64,000 nucleotides of DNA from Candidatus Doudnabacteria bacterium (GTDB taxonomy: Bacteria > Patescibacteriota > JABMPQ01 > JAGQLO01), in assembly GCA_020429185.1 (NCBI GenBank), contig JAGQLO010000001.1, positions 1,723-65,722 of the forward strand, given 5' to 3'. The notes below the pieces were generated by a model that ran no database searches, had not been told where the DNA came from, and saw nothing but the letters and a program-made list of their open reading frames with translations. A program made the translations under genes and the position numbers. Below are positions 6,632 to 64,000 of this stretch, piece by piece (position 1 is the stretch's first letter; the number at the start of each line of letters is the position of its first letter).

Positions 6632-7624
6632 TTAGTTCTTGCGCGCAGCAACAGCTTTTGCTGCTTCTATGATATCAGCTGCCGTCATTCCGTATTTCTC
6701 TAACAGTTCCGTGGGTTCGCCTGACTCACCAAAACTATCTGGCATTCCAACGCGCTGCATGGGAGTCGGAAGATGTTCTGAAAGCACCTCAGCAACGGCA
6801 CCGCCCAACCCACCAGTCACCTGGTGTTCTTCAACCGTCACAACAGCGCCTGTCTTCTTTGCAGACGCAACAACAGATTCAACATCAAACGGCTTGATCG
6901 TATGAAGATTGATCACCTCCAGCGATAACTCGCCTTCCAGTATGTTCGCGGCAAGCAAAGCCTCGTGCACAAGCGGACCACACCCTATGACAGTCACGTC
7001 TGTCCCCTCGGTGAGAACTTGCGCCTTCCCAATCTCAAACGGAGTCTCCTCTGTTGTAAAGACCGGAGTCTTCTCTCGTGCAAATCGTAGATATACTGGA
7101 CCATCGATTGCATATGCAGCCTCAGTTGCTTGTTTCGTCTGAATGGCGTCACAGGGAGCAAGAACCGTCATTCCCGGAAGCACGCGCGTCAATGCAATAT
7201 CTTCCATAGCCTGATGTGTTGCCCCATCAGGACCTACAGAAATTCCTGTATGAGCCCCTGCAATCTTTACATTCGTATTATTGTAGGCGATCGAAATACG
7301 CACTTGGTCCCAGTTGCGTCCAGGACAAAACACTCCGTACGTTGAAATGAACGGGACTTTTCCTTCTTTCGCCATACCCGCGGCAAGTACGGCCATGTTC
7401 TGCTCCGCAATTCCAACTTGTACGAACCGCTCGGGAAACTTCTCTTTGAAATATCCTGCACGTGTAGAATCTGTAAGGTCTGCACACAGCACTACAACAT
7501 CTTCATGCTGTGCACCAAGCGAAACAACTCCCTCACCAAATCCATTCCGAGTCGGCACTTGCTCAAGCTTACTCACGTCAAACGCGTCTGCAGACAACTT
7601 TAATTGAGGATTGAGTTTCGGCAT
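6632..7624 (-). CDS. Transketolase, C-terminal subunit (split tkt)
   Basis: Similar to the transketolase pyrimidine-binding and C-terminal domains. Confidence 0.85.
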   Translation of the reverse strand: MPKLNPQLKLSADAFDVSKLEQVPTRNGFGEGVVSLGAQHEDVVVLCADLTDSTRAGYFKEKFPERFVQVGIAEQNMAVLAAGMAKEGKVPFISTYGVFCPGRNWDQVRISIAYNNTNVKIAGAHTGISVGPDGATHQAMEDIALTRVLPGMTVLAPCDAIQTKQATEAAYAIDGPVYLRFAREKTPVFTTEETPFEIGKAQVLTEGTDVTVIGCGPLVHEALLAANILEGELSLEVINLHTIKPFDVESVVASAKKTGAVVTVEEHQVTGGLGGAVAEVLSEHLPTPMQRVGMPDSFGESGEPTELLEKYGMTAADIIEAAKAVAARKN

Positions 7625-7627
7625 ACC

Positions 7628-8497
7628 TTATTCGCAATCAACACAACTAATCCGACCCTCCAGCGAACGAATCTGCGACAACGCATCTTCTGCTTCCTCT
7701 TTGTTCGGCGGTTTTCCATGCCACTCAGGCTTGTACTCAATAAAATCAACACCCTTTCCTGGAATGGTGTGCAAAATGATCGCCATCGGCTTTTCGTAGA
7801 TAGCACGCGCCTCTTCGAGTGACGCGATCACCTCACGAATATTGTGCCCGTCCACATCCTTTACATAGAAGCCAAATGCTTCCAGCTTGTCGCGGAGTGG
7901 CTCAAGTGGCATCACCTCTTCGGTATGGCCATCAATCTGAATGTTGTTACGATCAATGACGTAGCAAAAGTTAAACAAACGCTCCTTACCAGCAAACATG
8001 AGCGCTTCCCAAATTGACCCTTCGTTCATTTCACCATCACCACCAAGGCAGTACGTCATATGCGTTTTCTGGTCCATACGGGCCGCATAGGCCATTCCAA
8101 CGGCCGCACCAACCCCTTGCCCAAGTGACGCACACCCAAACTCTACGCCAGGGGGTCCTCCATCGCTATACGGATGCGGATGCCCCTGAAGGCGAGTTCC
8201 AAGTTTTCGAAGCGTCTTCAATTCTTCCAAAGGAAAATAACCAGATCGTGAAAGCGCCGCGTACAAAATTGGCGCCAAATGCCCCGCAGACAACACAAAC
8301 CGATCGCGTCCATCCCACTCTGGATCGTTTGGCTTGTGTCGTCGCTGCGAAAAGAAGAATGCCGCAAAAAAGTCAGCCAACCCAAGTGGCCCAGCAGAAT
8401 GACCAGACCCAGCTTCAACAAGCATCTGAACGACGTCCTCACGAAGTTCCTTCGCAATCTCCTGAAGTTCTTCGAGTGAACGAGGCTCTGTCGCCAT
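7628..8497 (-). CDS. Transketolase, N-terminal TPP-binding subunit (split tkt)
   Basis: GDGEMNEG TPP-binding motif; adjacent to the C-terminal subunit. Confidence 0.85.
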   Translation of the reverse strand: MATEPRSLEELQEIAKELREDVVQMLVEAGSGHSAGPLGLADFFAAFFFSQRRHKPNDPEWDGRDRFVLSAGHLAPILYAALSRSGYFPLEELKTLRKLGTRLQGHPHPYSDGGPPGVEFGCASLGQGVGAAVGMAYAARMDQKTHMTYCLGGDGEMNEGSIWEALMFAGKERLFNFCYVIDRNNIQIDGHTEEVMPLEPLRDKLEAFGFYVKDVDGHNIREVIASLEEARAIYEKPMAIILHTIPGKGVDFIEYKPEWHGKPPNKEEAEDALSQIRSLEGRISCVDCE

Positions 8498-56803: not shown

Positions 56804-57460
56804 TTAGGACCGCGTTTTTGCCAGAGTCCGACCGGAACGCATTGCAGCTTCCAATACGACAACTGCAAGCCCAAGCAAAAGACCTGCAACAAATCCGGCA
56901 CCCAACACAACACCCTGAGAATATGTTCGCTCGTATGAGAAGGTTGTTCCAGGAACCGCCTCGAATGCAGGCTGACCTTCTACTGTTTCACCTTCTCGCG
57001 GCTCTGCAAGCTCCATCGCAGCAACACGTTCAGCAAGCTCAGCTGTTGCAGCTTCCAACGCCGCACGCGCAGTTGCTTCATCACGATCAACCGCCCGAAC
57101 ACGCAACAAGTGTGGAGCAAGCTGCTTCACCTTAAATGATCGAGCAAAATCAATCGCGCCAGCCTCGGAAACATCGCGACCAGCACGTTCTGCTACTTCC
57201 AATGCGAAGTCACCTGTTTCAAACAAGCGCGAAGAACTGTTCACAACAATTTCCGTAGCCTGTGCAGCGTAAAAGTTGTCGTACTGAAAATCTGAACTTT
57301 CGGCACGATTCACACGTGTCACCGTCACCGTTGTTTCCGCAATGTAGTTTACCGGACGCAACTGCTGTACCACCAAGGCAATCAACGCAACCGCAATACC
57401 CAACACAAGGATCAGCCACCAACGACGCGCAAGAAGGGAAAGTGTGTCTACAAGTTGCAT
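56804..57460 (-). CDS. Wzz/CapA-like polysaccharide chain-length determinant (short form)
   Basis: N- and C-terminal TM helices flank an about 150-aa coiled, A/E-rich periplasmic segment. It is embedded among GT genes. Confidence 0.5.
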   Translation of the reverse strand: MQLVDTLSLLARRWWLILVLGIAVALIALVVQQLRPVNYIAETTVTVTRVNRAESSDFQYDNFYAAQATEIVVNSSSRLFETGDFALEVAERAGRDVSEAGAIDFARSFKVKQLAPHLLRVRAVDRDEATARAALEAATAELAERVAAMELAEPREGETVEGQPAFEAVPGTTFSYERTYSQGVVLGAGFVAGLLLGLAVVVLEAAMRSGRTLAKTRS

Positions 57461-57469
57461 AGAAAGTCG

Positions 57470-58612
57470 TTAGATAAACGAGACGTCAGAGAGATGCTTC
57501 GAGCGGAATTCAGAAAACTCACGTTCAATGTATTCCTGAATATTCTTCGTAAAGATCTCCGTTGAGAACTTTTCTGCATGTGCTCGAATCACAGCAGGAT
57601 CAAATGCTGTGTAATCAAAGTCTCGCACAACATCCACTAAGTCCCAAGGCGTCTGATCATCGAACAGAATACCCGTCTGACCATCGACAACTGTTTCGCG
57701 CGCACCACCCTTTCCATACGCAATCACAGGGCGACCAGCAGCCATTGCCTCAAGCGCTGCAATACCAAAGTCTTCCTCTTGCGGATGAATAAATGCCTTA
57801 CAGTGAGACAGCAGCTCGTTGCGCTCTTCGTTATTGACTGGACCCAAGAACTCAATATTCTTACCCGCCATCGCTTTCAATTTTTCGTATTCCTCTCCCA
57901 TTCCCACAATCTTCAATGGCAAACTCAATGAATTGAATGCCTTGATTGCAAGGTCAACACGCTTGTACGGTCGCAAACGGGAAACAAGCAAATAGTAATC
58001 ACTCACCTCCTCTACCGGAACGGGCTTCAATCCAGAAATATCAACAGGCGGGAAAATGACTTCACTTTCTGCACGATAAAACTTCTCAATACGCCTCTGA
58101 ACAGTTTCGGAATTTGCGATAAATCGATCTACACGATCTGCCGCAAGTCGATCCCATACGCGCAAACGATTCAAAATGATCGGCAGCAACTGCTTCACCA
58201 CCGTTGGCTGACGCAAATCTTCTGTGTAGCTATGCGTATCACTCCACAAGTAGCGTGTTGGTGAGTGACAGTAACAGATATGCAACGTGTCGGGATTCGT
58301 CACGACACCCTTTGCAAACGCAGAGCTGTCGGAAATCACGAGGTCATACTCAGACAAGTCCAAACGCTCAATCGCTGCAGGCATCAAGTTGAGATACCAC
58401 TTATAGCGCTTAGGACCACCGGGAAGTCGTTCAATAAACGACTGTCGAATGTCCCAGTCTTTGTAAAGCCCGCCCGTTCCTTCCTCATCATGTACAAGCG
58501 TGTAGATAGGAGCAGATGGAAAGAGATCATGAAACACTTCCAACACACGCTCCGCACCACCCACCTGCGTAAGAAAATCGTGAACGAGGGCAACTTTGAC
58601 TTGTCTTGGCAT
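57470..58612 (-). CDS. Glycosyltransferase family 4 (GT-B)
   Basis: EDFGIAALEAMAAGRPVIA motif. Confidence 0.8.
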   Translation of the reverse strand: MPRQVKVALVHDFLTQVGGAERVLEVFHDLFPSAPIYTLVHDEEGTGGLYKDWDIRQSFIERLPGGPKRYKWYLNLMPAAIERLDLSEYDLVISDSSAFAKGVVTNPDTLHICYCHSPTRYLWSDTHSYTEDLRQPTVVKQLLPIILNRLRVWDRLAADRVDRFIANSETVQRRIEKFYRAESEVIFPPVDISGLKPVPVEEVSDYYLLVSRLRPYKRVDLAIKAFNSLSLPLKIVGMGEEYEKLKAMAGKNIEFLGPVNNEERNELLSHCKAFIHPQEEDFGIAALEAMAAGRPVIAYGKGGARETVVDGQTGILFDDQTPWDLVDVVRDFDYTAFDPAVIRAHAEKFSTEIFTKNIQEYIEREFSEFRSKHLSDVSFI

Positions 58613-58637
58613 AGCAATCGTTTTCTAGCAGAGCTGA

Positions 58638-60020
58638 TTAGGACCCGAACTTTCGGCCAAACACAACACGAAGAGTTCGAAATAGAATACTAAGGTCCAT
58701 ACGAAGTGACCAGTTTTCCATGTAGTACGTATCCAACCGCACTTCTTCTTCAAAGTCGAGGTCAGAACTTCCAGACACCTGCGCCAACCCTGTCATTCCA
58801 CTATTAATACCGAGAACGCGCCTATGGTGTGCCTCGTACTGCTCCACCTCTGCTGGAAGATGTGGCCGAGGCCCAACCAAGCTCATTTCTCCACGCAAGA
58901 CATTCCACAACTGTGGAAGCTCATCGATACGCGTTGCACGAATGAATCGACCAACCCTTGTCACACGAGGATCATTCTCAATCTTAAATAATGGCCCCGT
59001 TCGCTCATTTTGCTCCATGAGTTTCGCCTTCAGCTTGTCGGCGTCTTTGACCATCGAACGAAATTTCCACAACTTAAACATTCCGGTCTTATTCACACGC
59101 TGCGATCCATAAAAGATAGGGCCAGACGAATCAAGTTTGACCCAAATCGCCGTCACCAAGAAAACAGGTGAAAAAAGCACAAGGAAAAGAAGTGCTCCCA
59201 CAATGTCGATAATGCGCTTCAAAATGCGATACCACCCCTCAAGAGGTGTGTGCCGAATTTCAAACAACGGAATCCCTCCCACATCGTGCACATCAAAGTT
59301 TGAAAGAGTTCCAAACAGATCTGGAACAATCGCAAATTCCCATTTCTGTTCTTCTGAAAGCTGGTGCAATTGCAGCAACAATTCCTGATCAAACGCAGTT
59401 GTATTCGTCACAATCACCTCATCGATACCAGGATTCTTCGCGAACTGCTTGAGTTTTTTCAGGACACCCTCCGACAATGTTTCGTATTCAGCGACCACAT
59501 TGTGACCAAGCGACGCTTTTTGGTAGATCTGTGATAAACGCTCACCCGTCTTCCCATTTCCAAGAATGACAACGCGGTGCAACCCGACACCACGCTTAAA
59601 GAACATCACCCGAATACGACGAAGCAAAAACCGTCCAAGCGTGATACAAGTAACTGCTAACAACCACACTGAAATCACCAAAAAGCGCGACTCATACAGC
59701 TCTCGCGTAAAGAAAACGTACACAATAAAGACGGTCACAGCCACCGTCATCCCAATAAACGCCTTGATCAAATCGTCCGTGACATTGCGATGGCGGCGAA
59801 TCTGATAAAAACCCAATGAGGCAAAAATCAGAAGTGCGACAGGGGCTGCAATAGCAACAAGCTCCAAAAACTCCCAAAGCGTTGTTTCAAACTCAACCGG
59901 ACGCGCCTCTGTAAAGATATCTAAAAACCGCAGACCGAAGGCGGCTGCAGCAGCCAGAAGGATCATGAGGTAATCCAACGGCACCAAAAGCGCAGTGAAC
60001 AATAATTCTGAACGCTTCAT
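58638..60020 (-). CDS. Undecaprenyl-phosphate sugar phosphotransferase (WbaP / bacterial sugar transferase family)
   Basis: C-terminal PRVTRVGRFIRATRIDELPQLWNVLRGEMSLVGPRP signature. Start set at MKRSELLF (60020). Confidence 0.85.
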   Translation of the reverse strand: MKRSELLFTALLVPLDYLMILLAAAAAFGLRFLDIFTEARPVEFETTLWEFLELVAIAAPVALLIFASLGFYQIRRHRNVTDDLIKAFIGMTVAVTVFIVYVFFTRELYESRFLVISVWLLAVTCITLGRFLLRRIRVMFFKRGVGLHRVVILGNGKTGERLSQIYQKASLGHNVVAEYETLSEGVLKKLKQFAKNPGIDEVIVTNTTAFDQELLLQLHQLSEEQKWEFAIVPDLFGTLSNFDVHDVGGIPLFEIRHTPLEGWYRILKRIIDIVGALLFLVLFSPVFLVTAIWVKLDSSGPIFYGSQRVNKTGMFKLWKFRSMVKDADKLKAKLMEQNERTGPLFKIENDPRVTRVGRFIRATRIDELPQLWNVLRGEMSLVGPRPHLPAEVEQYEAHHRRVLGINSGMTGLAQVSGSSDLDFEEEVRLDTYYMENWSLRMDLSILFRTLRVVFGRKFGS

Positions 60021-60095
60021 AACAAAAACAGCGTAGCGACTTTTTACCTCTCCGTCGAGAGAAAAAGTGGTGTATGAAGATGTATGATCTGCTTT

Positions 60096-60532
60096 GAGCG
60101 AACGCGAGTTGTACGCCGAATTTTGTCTACATAACACGCGAACGTGACATGGAGATGGTCATCTATCTAGGCCCATTGTTACCAATAGGCTCGAGCAATC
60201 TACCCGCTGCTCACAACTCGACTCGAGAGCGACTTGTGACAGCCTATATGATCTTGCACCAGATCGGGTTTACCCCACATGCATGTCACCATGCACATCC
60301 GTGAGCTCTTACCTCACACTTTTCAGCCTTACCTGTTCCGTCTTGCGACGGCCATCGGCGGTATATGTCTCTGTGGCACGAGCCCTACACTCCTGTCACT
60401 TCTTGCGAAGCCGCAGTGCGGTTGGCGTTACCAACGATCATGCTCCGCTATTCACATAACGGGGTGTTCGGACGTTCCTCGGGCTCGCTTAGTTGCCTAA
60501 CCGAGCACGCGACCATCCACTCGCATTCGCTC
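60096..60532 (-). ncRNA. rnpB: RNase P RNA (bacterial type), about 437 nt. Found by sequence pattern; not in the ORF track.
   Basis: Minus-strand sequence contains CGAGGAACGTCCG (P4 5' strand), ACCGCCGATGGCCGTCGCAAGACGGAACAGGTAAGGCTGAAAAGTGTGAGGTAAGAGCTCAC, GGGGTAAACCCGATCTGGTGCAAG and GGGCCTAGATAGATGAC. All are close matches to the E. coli M1 RNA conserved regions. P1 pairing: GAGCGAAUGCGAGU / ACUCGCGUUCGCUC. Confidence 0.75.
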
Positions 60533-60598
60533 AAAAAAGATCAACTCCGACCTGCGCAGAATAGCCACTTGACAGAAAAAGTCAATATGGCAAAAACA

Positions 60599-61006
60599 CT
60601 AACTCAACTGTGCATCTAAGGCCTCGTTCACAAGACGATCCGCCTCTTTGTTTTCTTCACGCGGCACATGCGTATAGGTTACACGTTCAAACTGACCTTC
60701 GAGCTCTTTGACCGCTGCCGCAAGTGGCTTCATATCCTTATGCTTCACCCGATACACCCCGGTCATTTGCTTCACAATGAGTTCGGAATCCATGTGGACG
60801 GCAACCTCGTCTGCATGTTGCTCACGCGCCATTTCTAACCCACGGATAAGCGCAGAGTATTCTGCCACATTGTTCGTAGCCGTACCGAGATACTCGCCAA
60901 CACCGTCTACCTCAACTCCATCTTCGTCATACAACACCGCACCAAGCGCAGCGGGCCCAGGGTTTCCACGTGATCCACCATCTGTAAACAATGTGAGTGT
61001 TCTCAT
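60599..61006 (-). CDS. rnhA: Ribonuclease HI
   Basis: TDGGSRGNPGPA ... catalytic D/E/D residues. Confidence 0.9.
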   Translation of the reverse strand: MRTLTLFTDGGSRGNPGPAALGAVLYDEDGVEVDGVGEYLGTATNNVAEYSALIRGLEMAREQHADEVAVHMDSELIVKQMTGVYRVKHKDMKPLAAAVKELEGQFERVTYTHVPREENKEADRLVNEALDAQLS

Positions 61007-61011
61007 AGATC

Positions 61012-62874
61012 TTACTCAAATCCACCAGCCTCCTCTGATACTTCTTCTTCAACGTGTGCACCTGCTTTCTGCAAATCAACGATCTTCAACTGAATAGAGC
61101 GTGTGCCGTTCCATTCATTTACATCCACCTCGTACACCACGTCCACTTTATCTCCCTGCACAATGTCTCCCGCATGATTTCCCAAACCGAATCCGATCGA
61201 CTCCATCAAGCAACTTGAAGCACGACACTGTACTGGCATATGTGGATCCAATTCGGCATCGCGCTGAACTCCCACACAGAGACCATGACCATCACACGCT
61301 TCGGCATGAAGGCGTAGCTTCAAGTGATCATCTCCCTGCCCAACAGTACGAATCTCAGCCACCTCAACACCACGAGACAAAAAGATGGGACGTGGGTTCG
61401 CAATACCCGTTGGCTCCAATTTCATGACAAGATCAACAACATCCCAGTCAACATGTGAAAGTGGAAGTTCCATATCAATTTCCAATGTTTTCCGCAGATC
61501 AGATTCCTTTAACTGTTCTCGTGCATATCTCTCAATTCCTTCCTTGAATTTCTCTAAATTCTCAACGAGCATCGAACACCCTGCCGCCATCTTATGTCCT
61601 CCAAACGTTGTAAGAAGTTCTTTCTGACTCCGAATAGCCTCAACAACATCGAAGCCCTTAATACTTCGAGCGGATCCGGTTACCGTTCCATCTTCTCGAA
61701 TCGAAAGAATAAACGTTGGACGCGCAAAACGTTCTGTTACACGGCCGGCAACAATTCCCACAACACCTTGCGACCAATTGTCGGAAGCAGCAAACAACAC
61801 ACGCTGATCACCCGGATCCCCAATCTGCTCCATCGCCTCTTCCGAAATCGCTATTGTCATGTCGCGACGCTCCGCATTGGTCTTTTCAACCTCCTCTGCA
61901 AGCCGCTCAACCGTTTCTTCATCGGTAGACGTCAACAGTTCGTACGCAGTATTTGCATGCTTAATACGACCAGCCGCATTAATACGCGGCCCGAGAATGA
62001 ATCCAATACTTCCAGCCTGTAACTTATCTTTTGTGAGATTCGCCTTCTCCATCATTGCCTTCAATCCAATACGCTTCGTCTTGGCAATGACCTTCAATCC
62101 ATACGTCACAAGAACCCGATTCTCTCCAACGAGAGGCATACAGTCTGCAACCGTTCCAATAGACACAACATCGAGCAACCATTTTTCCTGCCCGTCAGCA
62201 TACCCAGGAAGCACATCTCGATGCTTCTTAATCATGGCTCGTACAAACGTAAACGACATAGCAGCGGCACAATACTCCGCAAACGGATAGCTATGTCCTG
62301 GAATTTTCGGATCGACAATAATGTACTTTGGATCCAAATCTGGCGGCGGCAAATGATGATCCAACACAACAACATCCACGCCAAGCTCGTTGGCGTAGTC
62401 AATCTCAGGAGTATTCGAAACGCCCAGATCGGCCGTAATCACAAGCGTTACCCCCTCCTCTGCAAACCGCTTTAACGTTGGCTTGTTCAATCCATACCCT
62501 TCGGTAACACGGTCAGGCAGGTGCACGGGCACATCTTCAACCTGAGCAAATTCACGCAAGAAGTGCGTCAGCACCGTTGCAGAAGTCACCCCATCCGCAT
62601 CGTAGTCACAAAACAACGCAATCTTCTCCTTCCCCTTTAAGGCCTTTGCCACACGATCAACCGCACGATCCATATTTGGCATCAGAAGCGGATCAGCAAG
62701 ATCCGTATCGTAATCCGGATGAAAGAAGTGAGCTGTTTCTCCTTGCATCACTGCAGCCGCGAGCTGCTTTCGGTTCGCAAGTATTTGCAAAAAGACCGGA
62801 TGCTCCTGCAATGGATACGCCGTTGGGTCAACACGCGGATGCAAGACCCATTTTCGTTTGATATCAGAATCCAT
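61012..62874 (-). CDS. recJ: Single-stranded-DNA-specific exonuclease RecJ
   Basis: DHH (DYDADGVTS, VVLDHH) and DHHA1 domains. Confidence 0.9.
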   Translation of the reverse strand: MDSDIKRKWVLHPRVDPTAYPLQEHPVFLQILANRKQLAAAVMQGETAHFFHPDYDTDLADPLLMPNMDRAVDRVAKALKGKEKIALFCDYDADGVTSATVLTHFLREFAQVEDVPVHLPDRVTEGYGLNKPTLKRFAEEGVTLVITADLGVSNTPEIDYANELGVDVVVLDHHLPPPDLDPKYIIVDPKIPGHSYPFAEYCAAAMSFTFVRAMIKKHRDVLPGYADGQEKWLLDVVSIGTVADCMPLVGENRVLVTYGLKVIAKTKRIGLKAMMEKANLTKDKLQAGSIGFILGPRINAAGRIKHANTAYELLTSTDEETVERLAEEVEKTNAERRDMTIAISEEAMEQIGDPGDQRVLFAASDNWSQGVVGIVAGRVTERFARPTFILSIREDGTVTGSARSIKGFDVVEAIRSQKELLTTFGGHKMAAGCSMLVENLEKFKEGIERYAREQLKESDLRKTLEIDMELPLSHVDWDVVDLVMKLEPTGIANPRPIFLSRGVEVAEIRTVGQGDDHLKLRLHAEACDGHGLCVGVQRDAELDPHMPVQCRASSCLMESIGFGLGNHAGDIVQGDKVDVVYEVDVNEWNGTRSIQLKIVDLQKAGAHVEEEVSEEAGGFE

Positions 62875-62907
62875 AGATACAAATTCAGTAGCCTTCGAAA
62901 TCGAAGA

Positions 62908-64000
62908 TCAGAGCATATCGCGCAAACTCGTTCCTGTCATCTCTTCCGGAATCGGAAGTCCCATAATGTCCAATACAGTCGGAGCCACGTCGGCAAGCAC
63001 GCCAACAGGCTCCTGTAACCAAAGCAACAACTCGTCTTCTGTTGCCTCGCGCTCCTTACCAATCTCACACAACAAAAACGGAACAGGATTAGAGGTGTGC
63101 GATTTATCAATTTCACCACTACGTAGATTCTTCATAACCTCGGCGTTGCCATGATCCGCAGTCACTAGAAGCGCACCCCCCATCGCCTTAACCTGTTCCC
63201 ACACACGACCAAGCTGCCCATCAAGAAACTCGATTGATTCTATCGCAGCCTCGACATTCGCCGTATGCCCAACCATATCCGGATTTGCAAAGTTCACGAG
63301 ATAAAAATCATGTTCACCGACTTTCAGAGCTTCAAGTAGCGCATCTGCTACCCCTTCAGCACTCATTTCTGGCGCCTCATCATAACTTTTCACTGGAACA
63401 GAAGGAATGAGTTGCCGCTGTTCTTGTTCAAACGGATCAATACGACCAGCAGAGAAGAATACGGTGATGTGCGCATACTTCTCCGTCTCTGCTACACGGA
63501 ACTGCTTCTTGCCTGCCAGCGAAATCACTTCCCCTAATGAATTGGCAATATGATCTGTCGGAAACGCGATCTCTACTGGAAGATTGTTGTCATACTCTGT
63601 CATCGTCACGAACAACAGGTCCTTCAGGAGTGCGGTTCGCCCTACTTTTTCATCGATTCCAGGGAGTACAAATGCTTTCGTAAGCTGCTTCGCACGGTCA
63701 CTTCGATAGTTACTGTAAATGACCGCATCACCATCTTGAACTCGGGCAACTGGCTCACCCTTCTGTTCAATCACAGACGGTACAAATGATTCATCGAACA
63801 CGCCCTCCGAATACGCTTGCTTCAATGCCTTTTTCGGATCTTTCACACGTGGCCCCTCTGCATCTACCATTGCATGATAGGCCTGCGCAATACGATCCCA
63901 ATGATTGTCACGATCCATGGCAAAAAACCGCCCAGAAAGTGTCGCAAGCTTTCCTACCTTCAACTTCTTCATTTTCTTCTGAAGTCGAGCGACGTATTCA
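62908..64000 (-). CDS. gpmI: 2,3-bisphosphoglycerate-independent phosphoglycerate mutase, C-terminal about 360 aa. The 5' end lies beyond the window edge.
   Basis: LSGRFFAMDRDNHWDRI and downstream iPGM transferase-domain motifs. The frame stays open to position 64000. Confidence 0.85.
   Translation of the reverse strand, partial: EYVARLQKKMKKLKVGKLATLSGRFFAMDRDNHWDRIAQAYHAMVDAEGPRVKDPKKALKQAYSEGVFDESFVPSVIEQKGEPVARVQDGDAVIYSNYRSDRAKQLTKAFVLPGIDEKVGRTALLKDLLFVTMTEYDNNLPVEIAFPTDHIANSLGEVISLAGKKQFRVAETEKYAHITVFFSAGRIDPFEQEQRQLIPSVPVKSYDEAPEMSAEGVADALLEALKVGEHDFYLVNFANPDMVGHTANVEAAIESIEFLDGQLGRVWEQVKAMGGALLVTADHGNAEVMKNLRSGEIDKSHTSNPVPFLLCEIGKEREATEDELLLWLQEPVGVLADVAPTVLDIMGLPIPEEMTGTSLRDML

Follow-up and report, generated by a model that had tools for sequence, protein, structure and literature searches.

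A predicted class A RNase P RNA gene with a hairpin at the P5.1 position in a bacterium annotated as Candidatus Doudnabacteria

The gap between an RNase H gene and a sugar transferase gene in the window (the whole stretch of DNA analysed, 64 kb long) almost certainly holds a genuine, intact and ordinary rnpB, the RNase P RNA gene, of a Patescibacteria (CPR) bacterium annotated as Candidatus Doudnabacteria. Judged from its sequence, the gene is predicted with very high confidence to be functional; it lies on the minus strand, co-directional with nearly all genes of the window. A hairpin at the position of helix P5.1, typical of CPR RNase P RNAs, is present in its RNA. We regard it as an ordinary housekeeping RNA gene which brings no new mechanism and no new question. 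Its value is mainly for annotation: it gives an identity to an 'empty' gap of 578 bp and accounts for the apparently spurious ORFs called in related genomes.

Identity, extent and genomic setting of the gene

A cmscan of the 64-kb window matches 60096-60528 of the minus strand to RF00010 (bacterial RNase P class A), with 208.6 bits and an E-value of 3.5e-66. The match covers model positions 1-367, i.e. the full model, and its score is twice the gathering score of 100 bits. It is the sole Rfam match at gathering score within the window, and class A was kept by cmscan as the best among the overlapping matches of the RNase P clan. An earlier note, made from the letters of the sequence, had proposed an RNase P RNA gene here; the match establishes this identity, and the search with the Rfam covariance models which the note had suggested is highly significant. 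The P4 pseudoknot, which that note had made decisive for the identification, forms with 8/8 pairs and the bulged U. The same RNA was recovered from independent assemblies (L081 and L082). The unconstrained minimum-free-energy fold has a z-score of -4.46 against shuffles, and most local hairpins are recovered in it.

Concerning the ends, those given previously (60096-60532) add four 5' bases, GAGC, which pair with GCUC at the 3' end, and they are at least as good as those of Rfam. The P1 helix that was thought to close the molecule does so: with the GAGC/GCUC extension and three more U-A pairs it becomes a perfect helix of 17 bp (60535-60519 with 60109-60093). The putative ends inferred from P1 lie near 60535 and 60093, and the length of the RNA is about 437-443 nt. 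All of the sequence blocks quoted in the earlier note are present, but several had been mislabelled: 'ACCGCCGAUGGCC..GGUAAGAGC.CAC', assigned to the P10/P11/P12 junction, is really P12, J12/13 and P13; 'GGGUAAACCC...GGUGCAAG', assigned to P15-P18, comprises the 3' strands of P11, P10 and P5 together with J5/15; and 'GGCCUAGAUaGAUGAC', taken for the 3' strand of P4, spans the last part of P18, then J18/2 and the 3' strand of P2. The true 3' strand of P4 is UUCGGCGU (60120-60113).

The gap (60021-60598) had been described as about 460 bp long and free of ORFs; it is really 578 bp, it contains plus-strand mechanical ORFs of 51-84 aa, and a GTG-extended ORF of the transferase reaches 60137. The flanking genes, previously named wbaP and rnhA, were right at the family level, but the WbaP-specific cut-off was failed by the transferase (304 vs 403). 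From its ATG at 60020, the transferase aligns to TIGR03025 from residue 16. The features of the gene and its surroundings are presented in Table 1.

Table 1. Predicted rnpB, the elements of its RNA and neighbouring features. Coordinates refer to the window, except for the rnpB examples of the last three rows, which come from distant loci.
Feature	Position	Strand	Details
rnpB, RNase P RNA gene (predicted)	60093..60535	-	RF00010 match and full 17-bp P1
P1 5' strand	60519..60535, pairs with 60093-60109	-	17/17 pairs
P2		-	8/8 pairs
P3		-	11/11 pairs, GCAA loop
P4 5' strand, within conserved GAGGAACGUCCGAA (60467..60480)	60475-60467	-	bulged U at 60472
P4 3' strand, UUCGGCGU	60113..60120	-	8/8 pairs
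P5		-	4/4 pairs
P5.1-position hairpin (ES1.1), CCGUUAU-GUGA-AUAGCGG	60445..60462	-	7/7 pairs, GNRA loop, directly 3' of P5
P6 5' strand, GAGC	60442..60445, pairs with GCUC at 60227-60230 in the P17 loop region	-	4/4 pairs
P7		-	4/5 pairs
P8		-	5/5 pairs
P9, extended	60385..60420	-	10/10 pairs, apical CUUC-GCAA-GAAG stem-loop
P10		-	2/2 pairs
P11		-	5/5 pairs
P12	60327-60361	-	10/10 pairs, GCAA loop
P13	60300-60318	-	6/6 pairs, GUAAGAG loop
P14	60277-60298	-	9/9 pairs, GUGA loop
Specificity domain P7-P14	60261..60440	-	contains P12, P13 and P14
P15-P16-P17 arm	60197..60253	-	Rfam alignment and pair check
P15		-	4/4 pairs
P16		-	10/10 pairs
GGU motif, J16/15 loop (P15/16 loop)	60204-60202, within CGGGUAG at 60206-60200	-	Rfam alignment
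P18	60171..60190	-	8/8 pairs, GUAA loop
P19 hairpin	60130..60151, between the P2 3' and P4 3' strands	-	8/8 pairs, one unscored internal U.U mismatch, UUCG loop
Promoter-like TTGACT-N16-TATTCT	60558..60585	-	ends about 23 nt before P1
Mechanical ORFs opposite rnpB	60149-60304, 60279-60500, 60365-60619 (84 aa)	+	
RNase HI-type protein, 135 aa, upstream	60599-61006		Pfam RNase_H and RVT_3; below all NCBIfam equivalog cut-offs
Polyprenyl glycosylphosphotransferase, 460 aa, downstream	58638-60020		TIGR03025, 393 bits vs cut-off 296
rnpB of distant locus L049	7664-8028	+	
rnpB of distant locus L057	3957-4308	-	
rnpB of distant locus L075	7610-7969	-	

The RecJ protein of the window has the same sequence as GenBank MCA9375497.1, which is annotated as Candidatus Doudnabacteria; GCA_020429705.1, a near-identical MAG, carries the label Ca. 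Andersenbacteria, and both names lie within Patescibacteria (CPR). Only two RecJ relatives are found at 63-64% identity (L087 and L088) and the rest are at 44% or below, so the lineage is thinly sampled; in a scan of genome contigs with RecJ no relative exceeded 39% identity. L087 and L088 both share the order recJ - RNase H - rnpB - sugar transferase. Adjacency of recJ and rnpB is widespread in Patescibacteria: rnpB lies downstream of recJ, no more than about 1 kb away, in 14 or more distant loci. The strand of rnpB is the same as that of recJ in some distant loci and the opposite in others: the adjacency is conserved, the orientation is not. In the nearest loci of the genome-contig RecJ scan (L001-L006) no rnpB at gathering score is present beside recJ.

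Upstream of recJ there is a block of glycolysis genes (GAPDH, PGK, enolase and iPGM), and rnpB is followed downstream by a polysaccharide cluster (sugar transferase, GT4 and Wzz); both (window 56804-63972) are syntenic in L087 and L088. The window has 51 ORFs with a length of 200 aa or more, of which 43 lie on the minus strand; the plus-strand ORFs mostly sit as shadows within minus-strand ones. All 2-kb bins show a negative GC skew (-0.07 to -0.23). There is no tRNA gene in the 64-kb window, and a weak motif test saw no rnpA-like RNR motif in it.

With regard to expression, the promoter-like TTGACT-N16-TATTCT element pointed out earlier is present at 60585-60558, but its match to the consensus is weak: it has 9/12 consensus positions, and there are two such sites in the 851 nt scanned (59900-60750) against 0.7 expected by chance. 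The -35-like hexamer reads TTGACA in L082 (a change at 60580), and TTGACA also occurs at a comparable distance in L087. Conservation of the upstream regions is poor, and their alignment shows no clear conserved promoter. A consensus search found no canonical intrinsic terminator, and the hairpin of the 3' flank is no better than shuffles (z -0.77). The RNA may alternatively originate from co-transcription with recJ-rnhA followed by processing.

Helix anatomy, extra length and proposed function

Each helix was written with explicit indices and every pair was checked by script; all class A helices from P1 to P18 can be drawn in the RNA of the window. P4 has the conserved bulged U and the GAGGAA and ACARAA flanks of class A, and the P6 pseudoknot with P16/P17, which belongs to the definition of type A sensu Haas and Brown (per PMC7191817), is present. 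J5/15 carries CAA. The GGU motif assignments rest on Rfam alignments, and the internal fold of P17 is loosely defined. G96 is needed by P6 and also by the closing pair of the hairpin at the P5.1 position, so these two elements cannot both form fully. P10.1 is absent, with just CUC between P10 and P11; P15.1 (P18.0) and P15.2 are also absent, as the linker between P15 and P18 (J15/18) consists of GCUCGA alone.

The RNA exceeds the Rfam consensus by 66 nt, and all of these nucleotides are accounted for in the Rfam alignment: P9 (+21), the P5.1-position hairpin (+14), the P19 region (+11), P12 (+7), the P3 loop (+6), P17 (+5 net) and elsewhere (+2). P9 measures 36 nt where the consensus has about 15; its insertions are 16 and 5 nt long. 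The lineage-specific insertions by which the earlier note had explained the length are thus found as expansions of peripheral helices together with the P5.1-position hairpin. The extra length is made up of helix expansions already described for CPR; P19 is widespread and considered ancestral.

RNase P RNA is a ribozyme which trims tRNA precursors, and in class A the GGU motif binds the 3' CCA of the tRNA. The function of class A is known from the biochemistry of E. coli M1 RNA and from the structure of the T. maritima holoenzyme with tRNA. What is demonstrated for the RNA of the window is the match to the family, the ability of every helix to form and compensatory evolution. By analogy, it would be the catalytic subunit of RNase P, cleaving the 5' leader from pre-tRNAs, and its partner protein RnpA would be encoded elsewhere. 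In the predicted class A fold, P1-P6, P15-P18 and P19 would form the catalytic domain and P7-P14 the specificity domain. P4 with its bulged U is expected to hold the catalytic metal ions, J5/15 and the GGU of the P15/16 loop would bind the acceptor end and the 3' CCA, and the P10-P14 region would read the T-stem-loop. The loops L9, L14 and L18, all GNRA here, may dock on P1 and P8. The P5.1-position hairpin probably stabilises the structure at a distance from the substrate interface.

Comparative support and alternative explanations

The rnpB genes of the two closest relatives score 239.9 bits (L087) and 168.9 bits (L088) with RF00010. Between these and the window there are 68 two-sided and 11 one-sided pair changes, and pairing is kept almost everywhere; L088 was compared by explicit, script-verified helices, as its huge insertions spoil the MAFFT alignment of its 5' half. 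P1 pairs at 14/14 positions in all three RNAs, and the two relatives show 7 and 11 two-sided changes in it. P13, P14 and P18 all covary (P18 with four to five two-sided changes), and compensatory changes are also seen in P19 and the P5.1-position hairpin. P6 is GAGC/GCUC in the window vs GAGG/CCUC in L087, i.e. one compensatory change, and where the window has CUUC-GCAA-GAAG in the apical stem-loop of P9, L087 has GCCG-GAAA-CGGC. Two P4 pairs change among the three RNAs: A-U to C-G at position 67 and, in L088, A-U to G-C at position 73. The C at position 67 of the window is unusual and has a compensating G opposite it on the 3' strand. Over 97 RNase P RNAs, a set that includes the background class A RNAs of the metagenome scan, the pair at position 67 is A-U in 86, C-G in 7 (the window among them), G-C in 2 and a mismatch in 2; the four variable P4 pairs are standard in 98-99% of the set.

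In L082, an independent MAG copy, there are three differences inside the RNA, and all of them keep pairing: U.G to U-A in P18 (60174), G.U to G-C in P19 (60133) and G-C to G.U in P1 (60106). These changes, together with the compensatory evolution, argue against both a pseudogene and a coding region.

The RNA of L088 (Logan SRR33375180) is about 600 nt long (about 7300-7901); P3 measures about 120 nt, P5.1 about 68 nt and the P9 region about 79 nt, and both P17 and P6 are missing. In the Rfam alignment model position 1 falls at 7454, which mis-aligns P1-P4; the true 5' strand of P4 is at 7444, and P1 (14/14) and P2 (8/8) form only with a start near 7300.

Besides the window, L087 and L088, no fewer than 13 further RNase P RNAs of Patescibacteria have a hairpin directly 3' of P5. 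Its stems are unrelated in sequence, and its length and loop sequence vary freely among relatives. For comparison we used 44 background class A RNAs, a broad mix among the metagenome matches listed, of which the closest to the window reaches 65 bits by nhmmer and none is close. In these, the normal spacing of 16-25 nt from P4 to L8 is seen in 38, and a hairpin follows P5 in just two, both with the Patescibacteria-like GUCCGAAC signature. A small covariance model, from the 5' strand of P4 to P8, has 28 instances among Patescibacteria RNAs. In the alignment of these 28, all seven pairs of the P5.1-position helix change on both sides and 88% of the cells are paired. The covariation score of the 12-pair model (P5.1 and P8 together) is 0.394 vs 0.110 +/- 0.015 for shuffles, none of 500 shuffles reaches it and slid partners give at most 0.057; a model-fitted alignment favours its own structure, and independent single-sequence folds agree with it. 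The hairpin was also considered as an undescribed element, which was rejected: ES1.1 (P5.1) in CPR was already reported in 2026 (SI of PMC12974513).

The small model also finds P4-P5-P8-like segments in L071 (3933-4003, minus strand; 23.7 bits) and L006 (4704-4750, plus strand; 17.6 bits). The former is matched by nhmmer too, and neither locus has an RF00010 match at gathering score; such missed segments fit the report that rnpB genes of CPR are often overlooked (PMC8172020).

Could the copy be decaying or non-functional, with an active gene elsewhere in the genome? The view covers 64 kb of the genome, which leaves room for another copy, but all universally conserved blocks and helices are intact, the changes against relatives are overwhelmingly compensatory (including the 3/3 substitutions of L082), the site beside recJ is conserved, and CPR genomes are small and normally have one rnpB (PMC8172020); we therefore judge this very unlikely. 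That the gap instead encodes a small protein, either from a plus-strand ORF such as the 84-aa one at 60365-60619 or by extending the transferase N-terminally to the GTG at 60137, is suggested by the mechanical ORFs themselves and by the hypothetical proteins which gene callers put opposite rnpB in L087 (7168-7602, minus strand) and L088 (7579-8034, minus strand). Neither of these has a Pfam match, and they are probably spurious; paired compensatory changes are the signature of an RNA, and the ATG at 60020 suffices for the alignment of the transferase to TIGR03025, with no extension needed. A coding gap has, in our opinion, next to no chance of being the right explanation.

A different question is whether the RNA represents a distinct structural class, in which a class A core is joined by a class-B-type P5.1 with a specific bridging role, as opposed to decorative insertions. 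The covarying hairpin sits exactly at the P5.1 position, and textbook type A has no P5.1 (PMC7191817). L088 lacks P17 and P6 while its P5.1 has grown to about 68 nt, a pattern in keeping with a model of compensation similar to that put forward for the Bacilli-Mollicute lineage (PMC12974513). However, the partner of L5.1, P15.1 (P18.0), is absent, with J15/18 reduced to GCUCGA, and so is P10.1; P6, P16/P17, P13 and P14 are all present, the score is twice the class A cut-off, and the free variation in length and loop of P5.1 suits a tolerated expansion segment better than a fixed tertiary contact. A separate class is accordingly unlikely, and we prefer to read the gene as an ordinary rnpB with a CPR-type expansion.

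The ordinary CPR gene may still be informative on the order of events. The combination of P5.1 with retained P6, P13, P14, P16/P17 and GGU fits a gain of P5.1 before the losses typical of CPR, and we tentatively suggest that the clade of the window, L087 and L088 preserves an evolutionary intermediate, in which P5.1 was gained before P6, P13, P14, P16/P17 and GGU were lost in most CPR. If so, L088 would then have lost P17 and P6 within the clade while enlarging P5.1 (about 68 nt) and P3 (about 120 nt), and the three RNAs would form a natural series for asking if P5.1 structurally compensates the loss of P6. A CPR RNA that scores like canonical class A and yet has P5.1 could, together with L087 and L088, help to order the gains and losses in CPR.

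Comparison with known RNase P RNA classes

The RNA shares with class A (RF00010; E. coli M1 RNA, Thermotoga maritima) the helices P1-P18, the P4 and P6 pseudoknots, P13/P14, P16/P17, P18 with a GNRA loop, the GGU motif of L15 and the CAA of J5/15. It differs by its additional 66 nt (the P5.1-position hairpin, the P19 hairpin and longer P9, P12, P3 and P17) and by pair 67 of P4, which is C-G vs A-U, a variant found in 7 of the 97 RNAs. As in class A, there is no P10.1, P15.1 or P15.2; the textbook definition of type A also has no P5.1 (PMC7191817), whereas a 7-bp GNRA hairpin lies here directly 3' of P5. Because of this hairpin we file the RNA as a member of RF00010 with the CPR-typical ES1.1 expansion and not as textbook type A.

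With class B (RF00011; Bacillus subtilis, Geobacillus stearothermophilus) the RNA has in common a hairpin between P5 and P7 and the helix P19. In contrast to class B, it lacks P10.1, P15.1 and P15.2 and contains P6, P16 and P17, and it does not belong to that class. The role of P5.1 in class B is defined by the L5.1-L15.1 contact (PMC5066622), which cannot form in the RNA of the window as there is no P15.1/P18.0. Type C (Chloroflexi, Thermomicrobium roseum) is similar in having an A-type core with some B-type elements (PMC7191817), but it adds P10.1 and P15.2, whereas the RNA of the window adds the P5.1-position helix alone.

The described CPR RNase P RNAs (Lui et al. 2021, PMC8172020; SI of PMC12974513) come from the same group at phylum level, and the RNA shares with them the GUCCGRAC signature of P4/P5, ES1.1 (P5.1) and the site adjacent to recJ. 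Diverged CPR RNAs have no P13, P14, P16 or P17, and the UGG (GGU) motif is missing in 23 of 35 genomes (PMC8172020). The other Patescibacteria RNAs among the loci examined score 100-148 bits vs 208.6 for the window; L049, L057, L065 and L075 (130-148 bits) have AAAGUAG, where the window, L087 and L088 have CGGGUAG, and a degenerate P12-P14 region. Most CPR RNAs are described without P13/P14, P6/P16/P17 and GGU and with scores close to the Rfam cut-off or under it, but the RNA of the window retains all of these elements and scores far above the cut-off, so it is not of the reduced CPR type. The presence of P5.1 together with retained P6, P13, P14, P16/P17 and GGU is its only mildly unusual point.
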